Shown one piece after another: positions 9,979-44,593 of a stretch of DNA of 64,000 bases. A program made the position numbers and the translations under genes. The notes under the pieces were generated by a model that was given only the letters and a program-made list of their open reading frames with translations, was not told where the DNA came from and searched no databases. Source of the stretch: a phage; the sequence record NC_102531.1; one strand, given 5' to 3'. Numbering within the stretch: position 1 is the stretch's first letter; the number at the start of each line of letters is the position of its first letter.

Positions 9979-10025
9979 TTGTGTATAGTTTACTTGAATT
10001 TTGCAGCGTGTCAATAATTTTTTTT

Positions 10026-10424
10026 TTATTCGTGGGCACATGTTACAATGTGCTTTTTATAGCCCAGGTGGTTAGCAAGTGCCGCCAAAAACTCTTCTTC
10101 ATAGATCCAGCCGTCGGCAGTGATTCCCATGGCACTTAATGCGCTTTCAAGTGCAGCGTTGGCTTTATCATAACCGTGACCGCTCGCCTTGCCGCCAGTA
10201 TAACCGTACTTATTGTTCTTGTTGTCGTGAATCCAAAATACACAGTAGTGAGTGTTACCGCTGGCGGCGGCATAGTACCGGATCTCCGCTACTTCGTGCA
10301 AATTATTATCATCGTCCAGGCCAACCAGATTATAGGCCTTGTAGAATCCGCGATCACGGCGGCAGCTTTTAACATCAGAAAAAGAGAAGTCAGCATTGTC
10401 AAAATTAAAGGTTGTGGTTTTCAT
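10026..10424 (-). CDS. Hypothetical protein (132 aa)
   Basis: ORF. Confidence 0.5.
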   Translation of the reverse strand: MKTTTFNFDNADFSFSDVKSCRRDRGFYKAYNLVGLDDDNNLHEVAEIRYYAAASGNTHYCVFWIHDNKNNKYGYTGGKASGHGYDKANAALESALSAMGITADGWIYEEEFLAALANHLGYKKHIVTCAHE

Positions 10425-37555: not shown

Positions 37556-37565
37556 CACGTTTTTG

Positions 37566-38606
37566 ATGTTGACATCTGTTGAGACAATTGATACGATTTC
37601 TTCACTTACAGAGCACGAGAGACGACTCATGAATCTTGAAAAATATTATACACCAGAAGAGTTAGAGCGCTTGCTCAAAAAATATAGACGCAAACAGAAT
37701 AACGCACGGAAACGAGATATAGAGTTCGACCTGTCATGGGAAGAATACCTCCTATTTGGTAAAAAACTTTTAGGAGATGGAGTATGCGACTATACCCTTA
37801 TACCTTTTGACATGCACACAGATGAAAACGGGCTGGGAAATCCTTTCTACCCATCTCTGGAGCGGATAGATGATGAAGGTCCTTATGCGGTTGATAACTG
37901 TTGTGTGGTGGGATTGAGATGCAACTCTCTAAAGGACTGTCTGGTAGATAAAAAGACTGCAGTCTTGATTAAAGACGAAACTGATCGAAAAATTGTCCAG
38001 CAGATGATGCTCCACCTGAGCGAAGAGCGTATGGAGAAATTGAAAGGTGATTATACTTTTGAAGATTTCATCTTGCAATATGGAACGGAAGAGGATAAAC
38101 TAGCACTCTTTGACGAAGAAGAGGAGGAAGATATGCTACCGATGTCTAAAGTTACTTATCGTGCACCCAAGAAGCACATTTCCGACATTGTAAACGAGCC
38201 TATCACAGAAGAGATTGAAGAAATGACGCAACAGGTGCATGAAGAGGAAAAAGAGACTCAGGAGGTCGAAGAGGAGCTTACAGAAGAGGTTCCTGCACTA
38301 CCTGATGATGTTGAGATTGCCAAAGCTTACACTTTCTATTGTCAAACGTTCTACGATGTAGGTATGAAAGTTGATCTGTCGTTCAGCCAATTTAAGAGTT
38401 CGTATATTCGCAAATGCTGTGCTTTAACTGGTGAACGTCTTGAAGCTGGACTTAAACCTCTGTTGGTGACCGACTGGAATAAAGGTTTCACTAAAGGAAA
38501 CTTTATGGTAGTATCTCCAATTATGGAGAAAGCTATGACAGATCTTATGAAGACCACCCGCATGACAATGACCGAGTTGGCAGGTATTTTCAAACACGTT
38601 AAATAA
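37566..38606 (+). CDS. Hypothetical protein (346 aa) with internal MSKVTYRA copy at residue 193 and an acidic central linker
   Basis: First gene of the plus-strand island; contains the right copy of the 29-bp inverted repeat in frame. Confidence 0.5.
   Translation: MLTSVETIDTISSLTEHERRLMNLEKYYTPEELERLLKKYRRKQNNARKRDIEFDLSWEEYLLFGKKLLGDGVCDYTLIPFDMHTDENGLGNPFYPSLERIDDEGPYAVDNCCVVGLRCNSLKDCLVDKKTAVLIKDETDRKIVQQMMLHLSEERMEKLKGDYTFEDFILQYGTEEDKLALFDEEEEEDMLPMSKVTYRAPKKHISDIVNEPITEEIEEMTQQVHEEEKETQEVEEELTEEVPALPDDVEIAKAYTFYCQTFYDVGMKVDLSFSQFKSSYIRKCCALTGERLEAGLKPLLVTDWNKGFTKGNFMVVSPIMEKAMTDLMKTTRMTMTELAGIFKHVK
38137..38165. repeat. 29-bp perfect inverted repeat, right copy
   Basis: taccgatgtctaaagttacttatcgtgca, reverse-complementary to 36275..36303. 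Confidence 0.85.
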
Positions 38607-38639
38607 TAACAGGGGCCAATGGCCCCTTCTGGAGTTTTA

Positions 38640-40100
38640 ATGGATAGCAGAAGTTCAGAAATCATTGCCTCGCAGAAAGATGATGCCCTGAGAATGTTGC
38701 AGGCTGCACGTATGTATCTCCTTGAAAAGCTGCCGTTCTATGGCACACTACTGTCAGGGTTGCAGTTCGTAGAAAACCACACATGGTGCTCCACCATGGC
38801 AACCGACCATAAACGCATCTATTACAGTCCTGAGTTCATTATGGGATTGGCTGATGAACGCAAGGCTATTCTTAAGGCTTCTCTAACTGACGAGCAGTTT
38901 GAGATGGCTGAAGTTTTCTATTCCCCAAAATCTGTGAAAGAGGTGGCCTTCCTTCTGTCACATGAGGTGGGGCATATTATCTGTGATCACCTAGTCCGTG
39001 GTAAAAGCTTTGAGCCGGAACTGTTCAATATTGCTTGTGATCACGTTATCAACACAGGCCTTGTGGTTGACTTTAGCAAACCTCCTTGTGTTTTCTTCCC
39101 GAAGGGGAAAAGCACTACGTTCGTGAAAGGTAAGCCTTTTGGCTTCTTAGCCAGCTGCTACTGCGACATGAAGTTTCATGGATGGATTGCTGAGAACGTT
39201 TATGCAGTTCTTGATAAGCAAAGAGATCAGAATAACGGTAAAAGTAAGAACGGTAAAGGTGAGAACTCTCAAAGTGATAAGCGACAAACCGATGATCACA
39301 TGAGTGGGAACGGTGGCACCAATGATAATCTTGGAAAGGCTATGGGGTATGATCAGCCACAACCTGTAATCAGCCAATCTGATAAAGATCAGGCCATGCA
39401 GGACTCTGGTGATATGCTGGAGGCAGCAATGCAAGCGTCCGGAGGCCGTTGCCCTGAGGCGGTGCGTGAGTTTGTCAAGAACAGAGGTAAACCTGTAATC
39501 AACTATATAGACATCATTAAGCAACGCATGTTGTCTAAAAGAAAGGCCGAACTGACCTACAGAAAACCTGGTCGCCGATCTGGGTCTTTGACCAGCACAA
39601 TGCGAAAAGTTGGGGCTATAAACAAGAACCAGCACGTTATTGTTCCTGGTCGTAATCCGGAAAACACTATAGATATTGTGGTGGCTTTAGACGTTTCTGG
39701 CTCGATCTCTCAAAGAACTTTAAAGAAAATGTTCAATGAAATCACCGGATTGTGCAATCTGTATAAAGAGTTTAAGGTTACAATGTTCTGTTGGTCAACT
39801 GAGGTTGGAGAGGTTAAAGTATACACTCGCGGCAACATAGACGAGATGATCAACTATGAGGTCCACTCAACATGGGGCACAACAGCTGCTTGCGTGTTCG
39901 AGTATCTGGATGCCAACATACCTAATGCAAAAGATGTCATCGTCCTGACCGACCTATACTTTGAGCATAACTTTGAACAAAAGGTTGTTGACAACAAGTG
40001 GAAAAAGTACGATACTCTATGGGTCCTCACTGAGGGGTATAATAAAAATTATATCCCGAGCTTTGGGAAAACTGTGGAATTAATCGAGTACGCTAAGTAA
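38640..40100 (+). CDS. vWA-domain protein with N-terminal HExxH metallopeptidase-like motif (CobT-like partner of the MoxR ATPase)
   Basis: LSHEVGHIICDH (HExxH) and MIDAS-like VVALDVSGS; start placed at the ATG after GGAG rather than the ATG inside hairpin 38611..38627. Confidence 0.65.
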   Translation: MDSRSSEIIASQKDDALRMLQAARMYLLEKLPFYGTLLSGLQFVENHTWCSTMATDHKRIYYSPEFIMGLADERKAILKASLTDEQFEMAEVFYSPKSVKEVAFLLSHEVGHIICDHLVRGKSFEPELFNIACDHVINTGLVVDFSKPPCVFFPKGKSTTFVKGKPFGFLASCYCDMKFHGWIAENVYAVLDKQRDQNNGKSKNGKGENSQSDKRQTDDHMSGNGGTNDNLGKAMGYDQPQPVISQSDKDQAMQDSGDMLEAAMQASGGRCPEAVREFVKNRGKPVINYIDIIKQRMLSKRKAELTYRKPGRRSGSLTSTMRKVGAINKNQHVIVPGRNPENTIDIVVALDVSGSISQRTLKKMFNEITGLCNLYKEFKVTMFCWSTEVGEVKVYTRGNIDEMINYEVHSTWGTTAACVFEYLDANIPNAKDVIVLTDLYFEHNFEQKVVDNKWKKYDTLWVLTEGYNKNYIPSFGKTVELIEYAK

Positions 40101-40115
40101 GAGAGGAGGTTATTT

Positions 40116-40379
40116 ATGGCAACAGAGTTAAAATTTGCATCAAACCGTAAAACTAAGAAGTATCTGTCCTCAGTAGCTCCAGGCACTGTGGTGATGTTTG
40201 TTGATGAACTTGGGGATGTGAATACAGCACTTGTTGTAAAATCACATCCTGCAAACATATATGTTGGGGTATTTGACCTGTTCAGAAAGGTGTTTGTAGA
40301 ACTACCTCACAGTTTGGTTGTTACAGAAATGGATGCCTGCATAGAAATTCTTGGCGAAGTTATGGTGGAGGAACAATAA
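40116..40379 (+). CDS. Small paralogous protein 1 of 4 (87 aa)
   Basis: Shares the layout KF-x-S, G-x-VV, Cys or His core, V-TE(L/M)D, I-ILGE with the next three genes. Confidence 0.5.
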   Translation: MATELKFASNRKTKKYLSSVAPGTVVMFVDELGDVNTALVVKSHPANIYVGVFDLFRKVFVELPHSLVVTEMDACIEILGEVMVEEQ

Positions 40380-40642
40380 TGGCTACCAGCATTGTATTCA
40401 ATTCTAAGGTGAAGAACAAAAAGCGTGCAGACAGCTTTCCGTGTGGGACCGTGGTAAGTTGCGACGGAGACGGCATTCAAAACATAGTTATGATTGTCAA
40501 AACAGGAGAACATTGTGTGTGGGGGTTCGATTTAGAAAATAATGAGTTGTACGATCTGCCACCAAACATGAAAGTTACAGAGCTTGACACCAAAATTACC
40601 ATCCTTGGAGAGACAAGCTATTCAAAAGAAGGAGGAGAATAA
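40379..40642 (+). CDS. Small paralogous protein 2 of 4 (87 aa)
   Basis: Tandem paralog, TAATG-type junction. Confidence 0.5.
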   Translation: MATSIVFNSKVKNKKRADSFPCGTVVSCDGDGIQNIVMIVKTGEHCVWGFDLENNELYDLPPNMKVTELDTKITILGETSYSKEGGE

Positions 40643-40905
40643 TGACCACAAAAATCACTATCGCAGAACCGAAAGCTAACACTCAACCTATCGAAAAGTT
40701 TAAGTGCGGTGAGGTGGTAACATTCACACCAGATAATGAAGATGCTAAGATTTTCGCAATGGTCACAGCTGAGTGGATGTGTGACAACACCACACAGGTT
40801 CTGCGTTTTGACACCTATCTTACCGATGAAATCAGGAACGACAAGATTGTGACTGGTGTGGATACTGAGATTGTTTTCTACAAGAGCTTTTTAGAGGGTT
40901 TCTGA
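40642..40905 (+). CDS. Small paralogous protein 3 of 4 (87 aa)
   Basis: Tandem paralog. Confidence 0.5.
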   Translation: MTTKITIAEPKANTQPIEKFKCGEVVTFTPDNEDAKIFAMVTAEWMCDNTTQVLRFDTYLTDEIRNDKIVTGVDTEIVFYKSFLEGF

Positions 40906-40906
40906 T

Positions 40907-41140
40907 ATGGCAAAAATTCGTAAATTATCTAGTAATCAGGTTGTGAAAGACTTTGAATCTGGAGAGATTCTTTATGTTCGTGATGCAGATGACGAAGGTG
41001 AAGATCTCGTTATGTTGGTGGGGCACGCTGAGGACGGATGCATCCAAGCTGTTTTTCTTGAAACAGCTATGGTGCACTGGATAGAGCTGGACCTGAAAGC
41101 ACGAAAACCTAAAGCAGAAATCCTGATTTACGAAGATTAA
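40907..41140 (+). CDS. Small paralogous protein 4 of 4 (77 aa, most diverged)
   Basis: Similar length and motif order. Confidence 0.45.
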   Translation: MAKIRKLSSNQVVKDFESGEILYVRDADDEGEDLVMLVGHAEDGCIQAVFLETAMVHWIELDLKARKPKAEILIYED

Positions 41141-41155
41141 TAAAAGGAGAGAGCC

Positions 41156-41605
41156 GTGTTGAGCAAACGTGAATGCGACAGCATTAGCCTGAATTCTTAT
41201 AAGAAACAATGGTTTGGGGTGGAAGTTTGCCGACTGCGGCTAGGCTCCTACCTGAACTTCGTTTATTATGAGAGCGACAGTCGTATCGTTTCTTATGAAG
41301 TGTTCTACACTAAGAACACATTCGAACTGCGCCGTAAAGTAGAGGGAGGGAGAACTACCGCCCAGAATAATTGGGAAACTATTCTGCCTCCAGATGTTAT
41401 AGGAAGCCCCCTGAATGTATCTGAAGATGAAAATCTTATGGTTCATGCTATGATGGGACTTGACAGCTTAGAGCTGGCGATCTATGATATGTCCATCGAA
41501 GCAGTTAAGCTGGACTACATCGAAAACACTTTAGAGGAAGGTATCAAGAAGTTTCTCAGTGAGAAATTAAAAGACCACTTTCATAAGGAGCTATATCTGT
41601 TATGA
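41156..41605 (+). CDS. Hypothetical protein (149 aa), GTG start
   Basis: AGGAGA Shine-Dalgarno 6 nt upstream of the GTG. Confidence 0.45.
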   Translation: MLSKRECDSISLNSYKKQWFGVEVCRLRLGSYLNFVYYESDSRIVSYEVFYTKNTFELRRKVEGGRTTAQNNWETILPPDVIGSPLNVSEDENLMVHAMMGLDSLELAIYDMSIEAVKLDYIENTLEEGIKKFLSEKLKDHFHKELYLL

Positions 41606-41847
41606 AGACCCGTAAAGAACGTAACAAAATTTTACCTGGAGCTCTCGAACACCTGATGAAGTGCAGATCTATTTGGCACTCTGCCAAGGAAGGGCAGAAG
41701 GTGGTTGTGGTTAGTGACAATGCCAACCCGTTTGGAGATTATACCACCATGATGGCCCCATATGTCCGTGATGGCGTTGTAGAAGTGGTCCCTTACAACG
41801 GTTTGCATGAACGGCACTTTGAAAGCACTTTGCTAGTGGAGCTATAG
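41602..41847 (+). CDS. Hypothetical protein (81 aa)
   Basis: ORF, ATGA overlap. Confidence 0.45.
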   Translation: MKTRKERNKILPGALEHLMKCRSIWHSAKEGQKVVVVSDNANPFGDYTTMMAPYVRDGVVEVVPYNGLHERHFESTLLVEL

Positions 41848-41849
41848 TC

Positions 41850-42416
41850 ATGGCGGTCAATGTGGCTTACAACACAGGAAAGCTTGACAGAGACATTGGG
41901 TGTCTTGTCCTTTCAGATACAGAAGAGTATTGGGGTTATGGGTTGCTGTCAGACCCACACCCGAGCAACCTTGTATCAACAGTGCTATACCGCTACGACC
42001 CTGTGCCAACGGTACACGACAAAGACATTCACGACCTTCGGATCAAGTGTCTGGAAGATCTGCTGAACAATGGTTGCAACGATCTGCAGGTAGCCAAGGA
42101 GAAGCTTACAAACATTCACAAAGAGGAAGTGATGAGTACCCTCAGTAAAAGATCAGTGCACAAAAAGATGATGCTGAACTTTGCAATGGGTATCTACATG
42201 GATGGGTATAAGGGAGGGGATCCGATCCTCAAGCTTCGCTGCCCGACACTGTGGGAAAGAGTGGTTGACAGTAAGGACGGTACTGCCCTGCTCGAACTCC
42301 ACACTGCAGGTTGGATTTGGCGGTATGTAGACGGATACCCTCTGTGGGCATGTGGACCTGGGGAATTTGTTGACAGACCTAGCGCGGTGGTGGACTTACT
42401 ATTGCAGTTTGAATAA
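41850..42416 (+). CDS. Hypothetical protein (188 aa)
   Basis: ORF. Confidence 0.5.
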   Translation: MAVNVAYNTGKLDRDIGCLVLSDTEEYWGYGLLSDPHPSNLVSTVLYRYDPVPTVHDKDIHDLRIKCLEDLLNNGCNDLQVAKEKLTNIHKEEVMSTLSKRSVHKKMMLNFAMGIYMDGYKGGDPILKLRCPTLWERVVDSKDGTALLELHTAGWIWRYVDGYPLWACGPGEFVDRPSAVVDLLLQFE

Positions 42417-42473
42417 AAAGGTGAGGTATAAGGTATTCATACACCTACCAACAATACAACAGGAGAGACTAAG

Positions 42474-42749
42474 ATGACGAAAGAAGAGGCCGACGTATTA
42501 GATTTTGCACTAGAGGCTACGCAGGAGGCTTTGGTGTTAGCTTGGAAAATGAACCAGCGTGCTGCAGAATGCAACCGCCGCATCAATGAGATCTTGGGCA
42601 TGTCTATGTATGATTTCACCATGCATGCCGGAGAGATTCCTGAATTAACTGCCGAGATGAATGATCTTGACGATAAAATTAATATCATTCTGAAGACAGC
42701 AGAAACAACTCACCAAACCGCCCGTAAATTTATCAACGAGAAGGTGTGA
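42474..42749 (+). CDS. Hypothetical protein (91 aa)
   Basis: ORF. Confidence 0.45.
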   Translation: MTKEEADVLDFALEATQEALVLAWKMNQRAAECNRRINEILGMSMYDFTMHAGEIPELTAEMNDLDDKINIILKTAETTHQTARKFINEKV

Positions 42750-43216
42750 ATATGGACTACAGCTACTGCGGGGAAGAAGTCCCTTTTAATTACAGCAATC
42801 TTACAACGAGCAATCCATATGAGACTCGCCACGGCACGCACATCATTGCCATCGACTTTGATGGAACGTTTAATGCGAGCCCTTTCATCTTCTCCCGCCT
42901 GATCAGGGATCTGAAGAAGGAGGGGTGGACAGTCTACCTTGTGACTTTCCGATTCATTACTCAAGACAATGTAGACATTGAGTATTGGCGCAAGGAGCTC
43001 GATGTTGGTGTGTTCTACACAGGTGGTGTTCAGAAGGCAGCCTACCTGGCGCAGTTTGATATCTACCCAGATATCTGGATTGATGATTCTCCGGCATGTA
43101 TTCCGGCTAAGAATCAGTTAGAGTTTGCAATGAAGGAGATTGAGTATAAGTCTGAGGCTAAGCGGAACGGATGGCCCTTTATTATTGAAGATTACCCAGA
43201 TCCTGAACCGGAGTAA
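42746..43216 (+). CDS. HAD-superfamily phosphatase-like protein (156 aa)
   Basis: Motif I IAIDFDGTF (DxDGT) and C-terminal IWIDDSP (DD). Confidence 0.45.
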   Translation: MNMDYSYCGEEVPFNYSNLTTSNPYETRHGTHIIAIDFDGTFNASPFIFSRLIRDLKKEGWTVYLVTFRFITQDNVDIEYWRKELDVGVFYTGGVQKAAYLAQFDIYPDIWIDDSPACIPAKNQLEFAMKEIEYKSEAKRNGWPFIIEDYPDPEPE

Positions 43217-43221
43217 GAGCC

Positions 43222-43392
43222 ATGAGGCGAAGATATCATTACCTGATGTGGAAGTTATATCAAAATGCTGCCAAAGCCTATCATACCATGTTTGGCAATG
43301 ACGATCACTACATCATGTTACATCTCACCGCTATTGAGCATCACAATGAGTGGATTCATGCAATCGTGGCAGGTGATAAAGACTTTAAGTAA
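43222..43392 (+). CDS. Small His-rich protein (56 aa)
   Basis: Hand-translated MRRRYHYLMW...GDKDFK; below the track cutoff. Confidence 0.3.
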   Translation: MRRRYHYLMWKLYQNAAKAYHTMFGNDDHYIMLHLTAIEHHNEWIHAIVAGDKDFK

Positions 43393-43442
43393 AGTATACC
43401 TCAAAAACGTATAGTGCGGCTTTCTAGACGGAGACTGATTAA

Positions 43443-43823
43443 ATGTGCAAGTGTAAATCCTATAATTGGAAAGTGAAAGGTGCCAAGCATCCAAATGTTA
43501 TCGTTGATGTGCCTAAAAATCTTCGTGACGGCAAAAAACGTGTGTGCCTTGATAAGTGTATGGCTAAGCCTATCATGAGTTTGTGGGCAGCAGGTTTGAA
43601 AACGCTAAACTGCTGCTGTGGTCATAACAAAGATATTCCAAGCATCATTATCCCAGAAGATGCAGATCCTAAAGCTTATGCCAAAATACTGACCCGCTAT
43701 CCCAGCACCTTCCTGATCGGAAAATGGTGTCACGATGAACTCCAATGGTGGATAGCCTATGGTAGTATAGGCACTACTTTTGGCTTCCCAGCTTTGTCAG
43801 AGCGCTATGTCAAAGTGTCATAA
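43443..43823 (+). CDS. Cys-rich hypothetical protein (126 aa)
   Basis: ORF with multiple Cys clusters. Confidence 0.45.
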   Translation: MCKCKSYNWKVKGAKHPNVIVDVPKNLRDGKKRVCLDKCMAKPIMSLWAAGLKTLNCCCGHNKDIPSIIIPEDADPKAYAKILTRYPSTFLIGKWCHDELQWWIAYGSIGTTFGFPALSERYVKVS

Positions 43824-43927
43824 TAGAATTTAAGGCCTCAAACGAGGCCTGTGCCTTCATAAATTTCCCCACCCTGTGCGATTGCCTTCCTGAATAAAAT
43901 ACCCTCTCAGATCTCTTAAAATTAAGC

Positions 43928-43956
43928 TTGACACCACCACCAGATCTATATATAAT
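43928..43956 (+). promoter_or_regulatory. Perfect-consensus sigma70 promoter (TTGACA, 17-nt spacer, TATAAT) inside the plus-strand island
   Basis: Both hexamers exact with 17-bp spacing; GAGGAG Shine-Dalgarno and ATG at 43985 follow. Confidence 0.65.
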
Positions 43957-43984
43957 TCTCACCAACCAAACAGAGGAGATCGTC

Positions 43985-44389
43985 ATGGATAATCTTGCAG
44001 ATGTAAATGTCGAAATTGTTAAACTAAAGTTCTTGGGCTTTCGAGACCATTCTTTAACAGCCATACTAATGGATACTCACTTCACACCAGGTAAAGAGTA
44101 CACTGCCTTCCGTTATATTTGCGGAGATCACGAATCAGCTTACAGTGTGAATACAAACCTCGGCGAGGGATATTTCATCAGAGATATCACAGATCACTTG
44201 TGGGGCATGTGGGAGTTGGTGGAGGAAGAGAATAAATCCCTTCCTAAAGAGATTTGGGTGCACACCTTCCACACAGGTAAGTTTGGAGGTACGGAACATA
44301 AGTCTATCCACTATGATGAAGAAAGTGCCATCAAACAACAAGCTGTGCTTGGTGGATCTATAGAAAAATTTGTTAAATGCGAGGACTGA
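43985..44389 (+). CDS. Hypothetical protein (134 aa; start moved to the ATG after GAGGAG)
   Basis: The track start at 43928 is the TTG of the promoter -35 hexamer. Confidence 0.5.
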   Translation: MDNLADVNVEIVKLKFLGFRDHSLTAILMDTHFTPGKEYTAFRYICGDHESAYSVNTNLGEGYFIRDITDHLWGMWELVEEENKSLPKEIWVHTFHTGKFGGTEHKSIHYDEESAIKQQAVLGGSIEKFVKCED

Positions 44390-44392
44390 GAA

Positions 44393-44593
44393 ATGGCTGA
44401 TTTTTGTAAAGATTGCTCTGAAGAGTTGTTTGGCTTTGACTGCAAAGATTTGGAAGGTCTGATCACTGAGGATCAGTGGAAGGAAGGCTATGCAGCACCT
44501 GTTATTTGTGAAGGTTGTGGCTATACCTATGTTGACCATAAAGGTAAGCGCGTCAAGCCGTCTGAAGATGGGGCATGTTGGGAGTATTACTAA
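44393..44593 (+). CDS. Zinc-ribbon-like small protein (66 aa)
   Basis: CxxC ... CxxC pairs (CKDC, CEGC). Confidence 0.45.
   Translation: MADFCKDCSEELFGFDCKDLEGLITEDQWKEGYAAPVICEGCGYTYVDHKGKRVKPSEDGACWEYY

Follow-up and report, generated by a model that had tools for sequence, protein, structure and literature searches.

Layout of the array and its neighbourhood

Within the 64,000-nucleotide stretch of sequence record NC_102531.1 that we analysed (the window), four consecutive plus-strand ORFs, termed O1 (40116 to 40379, 87 aa), O2 (40379 to 40642, 87 aa), O3 (40642 to 40905, 87 aa) and O4 (40907 to 41140, 77 aa), lie exactly where a preceding sequence-only reading had placed a run of 77-87 aa ORFs joined by 1-nt or TAATG junctions. 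The O1/O2 and O2/O3 junctions are TAATG overlaps, with the O2 start codon overlapping the O1 stop, and the O3/O4 junction is TGA-T-ATG, which leaves 1 base between the two genes. As read from the sequence, Shine-Dalgarno-like GGAGG or GAGGG motifs precede all four start codons: the one upstream of O1 (GAGAGGAGG, plus strand, 40101 to 40109) is annotated as an RBS in phage Murica, and the others sit on the same strand in the 3' ends of O1 (40364-40371), O2 (40630-40637) and O3 (40894-40898), a placement that fits translational coupling. Over the region from 38600 to 42500, the window matches Escherichia phage inoa at 99.8% identity and dozens of murica-type Vequintavirus (rV5-like) genomes at 98% or more, and in near-identical GenBank phages O1-O4 are each annotated as a separate hypothetical CDS. 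The four ORFs are real genes of a Vequintavirus, an rV5-like E. coli phage.

The array belongs to a run of plus-strand genes that spans 37563 to 44593, has minus-strand genes on both sides and corresponds to rV5 'genes 11-26', described as one transcription unit in the rV5 paper (PMC3606486). At the head of this block a consensus scan located a sigma70-type promoter (TTGACA-17-TACGAT with an upstream TG, plus strand, 37569 to 37597), the counterpart of the annotated rV5 promoter P11, and the plus-strand island described earlier is indeed a block of non-structural genes behind a promoter of this type. Farther along the block, downstream of the array, a perfect sigma70 consensus (TTGACA-17-TATAAT, 12/12) and an 11/12 site, at 43928-43956 and 41460-41488, may on their sequence be internal promoters.

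An Srd-like anti-sigma gene lies upstream of the array and a MoxR-type ATPase gene a few kb from it. The conserved left flank is a VWA-metallopeptidase gene (38619 to 40100, plus strand) with zincin-like and VWA parts (DUF2201_N/DUF2201; Pfam E 6e-28 and 7e-11), and the downstream neighbour (41156 to 41605, plus strand) encodes a 149-aa protein of phrog_6790. Databases disagree on the labels of these flanking genes (37563-38606, 38619-40100, 41156-41605): the DUF2201 metallopeptidase/VWA protein appears as 'HNH endonuclease' (phrog_1314) or 'anti-sigma factor' and the 149-aa protein as 'tail protein' (phrog_6790) or 'holin', all names that Pfam did not support here. A single 493-aa ORF encodes the VWA-metallopeptidase in the window, as in most relatives; in the rV5 reference NC_011041 (L003:1524-2985) it is split into the overlapping CDSs gp012 and gp013 (about 448 and 81 aa), for which a frameshift or sequencing error is probably responsible.

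Relatedness and predicted fold of the four proteins

O1 and O2 are certainly paralogs on direct alignment (BLASTP, 39% identity, E 1e-12), and BLASTP gave no match for the other five pairs among O1-O4. Searches against PHROGs assigned all four proteins over their full length, O1 and O2 to phrog_10698 (E 1e-41 to 1e-43), O3 to phrog_12861 (E 9e-62) and O4 to phrog_12046 (E 5e-55), with a weak full-length cross-match of O3 to phrog_10698 (E 0.078). These three families all carry the label 'unknown function' and are kept by PHROGs as unrelated, whereas profile-profile comparison combined with predicted structure joins them here into one superfamily. The motifs that the sequence-only reading had described as common to all four proteins (GTVV, VTE[LM]D, I.ILGE) are exact in O1 and O2 only and degenerate in O3/O4 (GEVV/GEIL, VTGVD/IELD, EIVFY/EILIY), and the only residues invariant across all four are M1, one Gly and one Ile.

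Semi-global shuffle tests gave z = 3.8-4.7 for the O2-O3, O2-O4 and O3-O4 pairs, compared to z <= 2.25 for neighbouring small-protein controls. Profiles were enlarged with divergent members from public assemblies (rV5 gp014, O1', P0027, P0029 and P0010), and hhalign aligned the O1/O2/gp014 family with O3 over 74 columns at a probability of 79-87% (87% with the enlarged profile; P 4e-6), with a score of 35.0 that none of 400 column-permuted controls reached (10.6 ± 2.3, maximum 23.1). When O3 was added to the family, O4 aligned over 69 columns (probability 80%, P 1.5e-5) with a score of 31.2, again reached by 0/400 permuted controls (10.0 ± 2.0, maximum 19.9), and an O1/O2 profile without O3 compared directly with O4 was not significant (probability 4%, 5/400 permutations reaching the score). 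In hmmsearch runs against 767 ORFs (every ORF of 45 aa or longer from a genome-equivalent set), the O1/O2/gp014 profile retrieved O3 (E 2.2e-5) and the profile including O3 retrieved O4 (E 3.3e-4, with the next ORF at E 0.1); a profile of all four found no fifth member among these 767. On these comparisons O3 is very probably a paralog of O1/O2, and O4 is probably one as well, being the most distant member and the weakest link, reached via O3 only. The claim of a tandem, strongly diverged paralogous family is thus borne out by BLASTP for O1-O2 and by hhalign, the permutations and the 767-ORF search, and the alignment check proposed with it returned similarity that is significant by BLASTP for O1-O2 only and by profiles for O3 and, through O3, for O4. 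A DNA repeat search found no nucleotide similarity among the paralogs, and their divergence, judged from the sequences, is old.

Two further sets of small genes were considered as family members and set aside, as neither had family HMM support. One is the 81-aa gene at 41602-41847, which has a weak local resemblance to O4 (shuffle z 3.5) and contains 'GQKVVVV', a stretch similar to the G-x-VV motif. In Seunavirus and Mydovirus (L004:2469-2935, L005:2497-2957), genes of 66 aa and 86-88 aa lie upstream of the VWA gene, between it and the Srd-like gene, and they are of array-gene size with unrelated sequence.

AlphaFold2 applied to the O1/O2 family alignment (pLDDT 83, pTM 0.68) produced a model of O1 in which a long N-terminal strand (residues 2-16) precedes five others, and the O4 model, of moderate confidence (pLDDT 70), is likewise all-beta with the same strand order. 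In the register of the sequence alignment, the strands of this O4 model (pLDDT 70) agree with those of O1 at 70% at offset 0, compared to 25-57% at offsets of at least 2 residues. The proteins are predicted to fold as an SH3/Tudor-like small beta-barrel behind a basic N-terminal beta-strand; the modelled barrel is five-stranded, antiparallel and strongly bent, as is characteristic of the SH3-like/Tudor superfamily. We liken this fold class to Tudor domains (SMN/TDRD/PHF19), KOW domains, the uL2 SH3-like domain and the UvrD C-terminal Tudor domain; Pfam and NCBIfam searches returned no Tudor, SH3, KOW or LSM match for O1-O4. An Sm/Hfq-like identity was rejected: proteins of that kind have an N-terminal alpha-helix and a five-stranded sheet with Sm1/Sm2 motifs, whereas the model begins with the 2-16 beta-strand in place of a helix, and no LSM or Hfq profile matched. 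All four proteins are acidic (pI 4.5-5.0), with a net charge of +1 to +4 in the N-terminal 20 residues and of -7 to -9 in the barrel.

Among structures in BFVD, the O1 model resembles (Foldseek E 5e-4 to 1e-2, TM 0.5-0.65) small, uncharacterised proteins of 70-90 aa from Vibrio phage Thalassa (A0A2H5BHC0), Serratia phage Hera (A0A7T3N9D3), Escherichia phages SU7 and LAMP and Klebsiella phage Seu621; these proteins differ from O1 in sequence (9-22% identity) and are at most candidate homologues. Several of the BFVD matches are common to the O1 and O4 models, and a gp014-type protein, from phage Pr121LW, ranks third among the matches of the O4 model.

That only O1 and O2 are true paralogs, with O3 and O4 being unrelated ORFans of similar size that share an all-beta pattern by chance, would account for the silence of BLASTP on five of the six pairs, for the division into three PHROG families, for the 4% probability of the direct O1/O2-to-O4 comparison, and for both the independent travel of O3 and the absence of O3/O4 representatives from an exhaustive profile search (see below). 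We nevertheless judge it improbable, because both profile-profile links stand about 10 SD above their column-permuted controls and O3 and O4 are the top non-self matches among the 767 ORFs, well clear of the next. Moreover, the alignments are full-length and co-linear with predicted strands in register, the charge layout is common to all four proteins, and the O4 model finds a gp014-type protein third in BFVD.

The first slot, distribution and selection

Aligned at the DNA level with rV5, the array contains an exchangeable cassette (slot 1, plus strand, 40128 to 40641), in place of which rV5-type phages carry a single 85-aa gene (gp014). Identity to rV5 falls from about 100% to about 50% after O1 codon 4 and recovers at the O3 start codon. 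The O1+O2 form, found for instance in the BASEL isolate HeinrichReichert (Bas58), is present in 43 records and the single gp014-type gene in 74 (about 117 GenBank Vequintavirus genomes), and the gp014-type protein is ~40% identical to O1 or O2 between flanks that are at least 98% identical. Among the array positions only this first slot is polymorphic. Its proteins form three clades, with O1 in clade A and O2 in clade B (56-64% identity within clades, 33-40% between), and the allele carried is decoupled from the relatedness of the flanks, as Pr121LW (gp014 type) has flanks nearer to the window than Aya (O1/O2 type). By analogy, the behaviour of the first slot is that of an accessory hot spot, with a pattern that resembles counter-defence loci, a likeness that is partly supported: of the diversifying-locus pattern that the sequence-only reading had regarded as typical, the exchange of O1+O2 for gp014 is present, and O3 and O4 depart from it in being invariant.

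The middle part of rV5 gp014 is slightly nearer to O1 and its C-terminal part slightly nearer to O2; an origin of gp014 as an O1/O2 chimera by unequal crossing-over was considered and dropped, as these differences are too small to support it. Sixteen records named 'Campylobacter phage' (among MG065635-MG065682, host Campylobacter jejuni) match rV5-like phages of E. coli here at 98-100% identity, and it looks as if their host labels are wrong or the preparations contaminated. In the tRNA cluster of JLBYU08 (L025:29476-29575, outside the window), a 100-nt 'tRNA-Stop(tta)' is annotated among six ordinary tRNA genes and may represent either a suppressor-like tRNA or an artefact of annotation.

A tblastn search of 50,697 phage records found the array genes in about 117 Vequintavirus records only, and the VWA gene is kept in 624, such that the small genes do not generally accompany it. 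When 1.84 billion representative proteins were searched exhaustively with a profile, 3 real clusters of the O1/O2/gp014 family emerged and no O3 or O4 representatives were returned; P0028, P0030, P0031 and P0032 were judged spurious as homologues, since their scores come from many short additive matches in long repeat proteins, and such spurious matches (LRR-like 'IKELPANLKVGG' or low-complexity repeats) reached E values down to 2e-14. Three word-indexed searches of 5.8 billion proteins recovered near-identical Vequintavirus proteins only, IMG/VR held 2 loci only, and the family was absent at the loci examined in Seunavirus, Mydovirus, phi92-like phages and Certrevirus. Because a homologue of the 149-aa neighbour directly follows the VWA gene in Seunavirus and Mydovirus, the array is a genus-specific insertion.

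Individual members do occur elsewhere. A solitary O3 homologue (81% identity) lies upstream of an Srd-like gene, without O1, O2 or O4, in a different, 137-kb phage, and a short contig carries a gp014-like gene at another position; members are therefore able to function without each other. The 137-kb phage is uncultured (L020, Logan SRR25667319 contig), carries the O3 homologue at 10001-10279 in a different gene order, with a weak ParE-like match further downstream, and may be an undescribed relative of the Vequintavirinae.

Substitution patterns contradict the description of these genes as fast-evolving. The dN/dS ratio is 0.008-0.025 for O3 (among the lowest in the compared neighbourhood), 0-0.09 for O4, 0.2-0.29 for O1, 0.15 for O2 and 0.10-0.12 for gp014, and the extremely conserved O3 and O4 proteins retain 88-100% identity across about 117 GenBank genomes. 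All of these genes evolve under purifying selection in their plus-strand frames, and the divergence among the paralogs is old. Being constrained, the genes are therefore functional.

The four-gene array is also kept in a divergent lineage (L015-L017), whose proteins are 58% (O1'), 70% (O2'), 98% (O3) and 95% (O4) identical to those of the window, compared to 55-82% for neighbour genes. Sliding identity between the window and L015 delimits a conserved O3-O4 block (plus strand, 40650 to 41250) that includes the first ~100 nt of the next gene and shares about 90% DNA identity with the L015-L017 lineage, against 65-75% elsewhere. This pattern of identity points to exchange of the block between lineages in addition to strong protein constraint. 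Within O3, a 90-nt patch (40777-40866) is only 82% identical to rV5 and Pr121LW in a gene pair that is otherwise 93-100% identical, and despite this patch the O3 protein differs by one amino acid only; its changes, nearly all of them synonymous, give the stretch the appearance of a small recombination patch.

Possible functions of the array

Few E. coli phages are isolated more often than those of the rV5 type, which also feature in cocktails for biocontrol and therapy, and to our knowledge no function is known for most of their early genes. Searches of Pfam, NCBIfam, PADLOC, PDB sequences and Rfam returned nothing meaningful for O1-O4 and linked them to no characterised family, and the literature held nothing specific on function, transcriptomics or anti-defence for the array genes. 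In the main text of the rV5 proteomics paper, gp14-16 are not among the virion proteins that are named.

We consider it most likely, with a probability of roughly 40%, that O1-O4 are early-made, non-enzymatic, stoichiometric binders of host or host-defence proteins, on the grounds of the predicted fold, the lack of a catalytic signature, the promoter and Srd-like gene context, the restriction to one genus and the exchangeable slot. Under this explanation the proteins would be made early in infection, as the promoter consensus and gene position suggest, and each would latch stoichiometrically onto a different host or host-defence protein. The host targets of the invariant O3 and O4 would themselves be invariant, and the first slot (O1+O2 or gp014-type) would be a cassette, exchangeable by recombination, that follows a variable target. 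Against this stands that neither experiment nor homology links the array to a host-takeover or anti-defence protein. A more specific version, in which the family would form a novel class of phage inhibitors with an SH3-like fold, slot 1 would be a swappable specificity cassette for a strain-variable E. coli defence or host factor and O3 and O4 would disable conserved host proteins, appears unlikely at present.

The strongest competitor, though itself doubtful, places O1-O4 inside a phage-internal machine, either as a hetero-oligomeric small-barrel assembly or as adaptors or substrates of the VWA-metallopeptidase/MoxR system. The translationally coupled junctions suggest matched stoichiometry, the array adjoins the DUF2201 VWA gene with the MoxR-type ATPase gene a few kb off, and purifying selection on O3 and O4 is very strong; their conservation would fit an internal phage function just as well as it fits binders of invariant host targets. 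Such a machine is, however, difficult to reconcile with the variation in copy number (3 genes in rV5-type and 4 in murica-type phages), with the presence of O3 alone in the 137-kb phage, and with sister genera that retain the VWA and MoxR genes while lacking the whole array. Less probably still, the proteins could be barrels (Sm-, KOW- or uL2-like) that bind nucleic acids and act as modulators of RNA or translation, of the phage or the host, a reading that their acidity weakens.

Acidic DNA-mimic anti-restriction proteins acting in the manner of Ocr, ArdA or Ugi are likewise small, acidic and, as the array proteins probably are, made early, yet such a role is very improbable here, because the predicted fold is a compact beta-barrel and not an elongated one and because the BASEL study found Vequintavirinae to be exceptionally sensitive to restriction-modification (PMC8594841), which argues against at least an anti-restriction role of the array. 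The same phages are reported to be commonly hit by abortive-infection systems (PMC8594841), and owing to both properties any counter-defence in Vequintavirinae is not broad.

Whichever function the proteins serve, the array is an ordinary kind of phage accessory-gene cluster that consists of very old copies of one gene for a small acidic protein of predicted beta-barrel fold. Its analysis unites three orphan PHROG families in a single small-barrel superfamily. Editing assisted by Cas13a is established for another Vequintavirus, EdH4 (PMC9712115), and the dimorphic slot, with 43 versus 74 genomes and near-identical flanks, amounts to a natural experiment on protein targets; if the proteins are neutral accessories, the cluster is one more case of ordinary phage mosaicism.

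The closest known counterparts of such a cluster are polymorphic accessory or counter-defence slots, such as anti-CRISPR loci and hypervariable early-gene regions. Unlike these, the array has no Aca-like regulator detectable by Pfam (no HTH match in the flanking genes) and no match to a characterised inhibitor or known inhibitor family, and two of its four genes are invariant. As in such slots, the array consists of small genes of unknown function within a non-structural unit, and it combines diverged alleles and a copy-number difference at a fixed position with near-identical flanks and a distribution confined to one genus.
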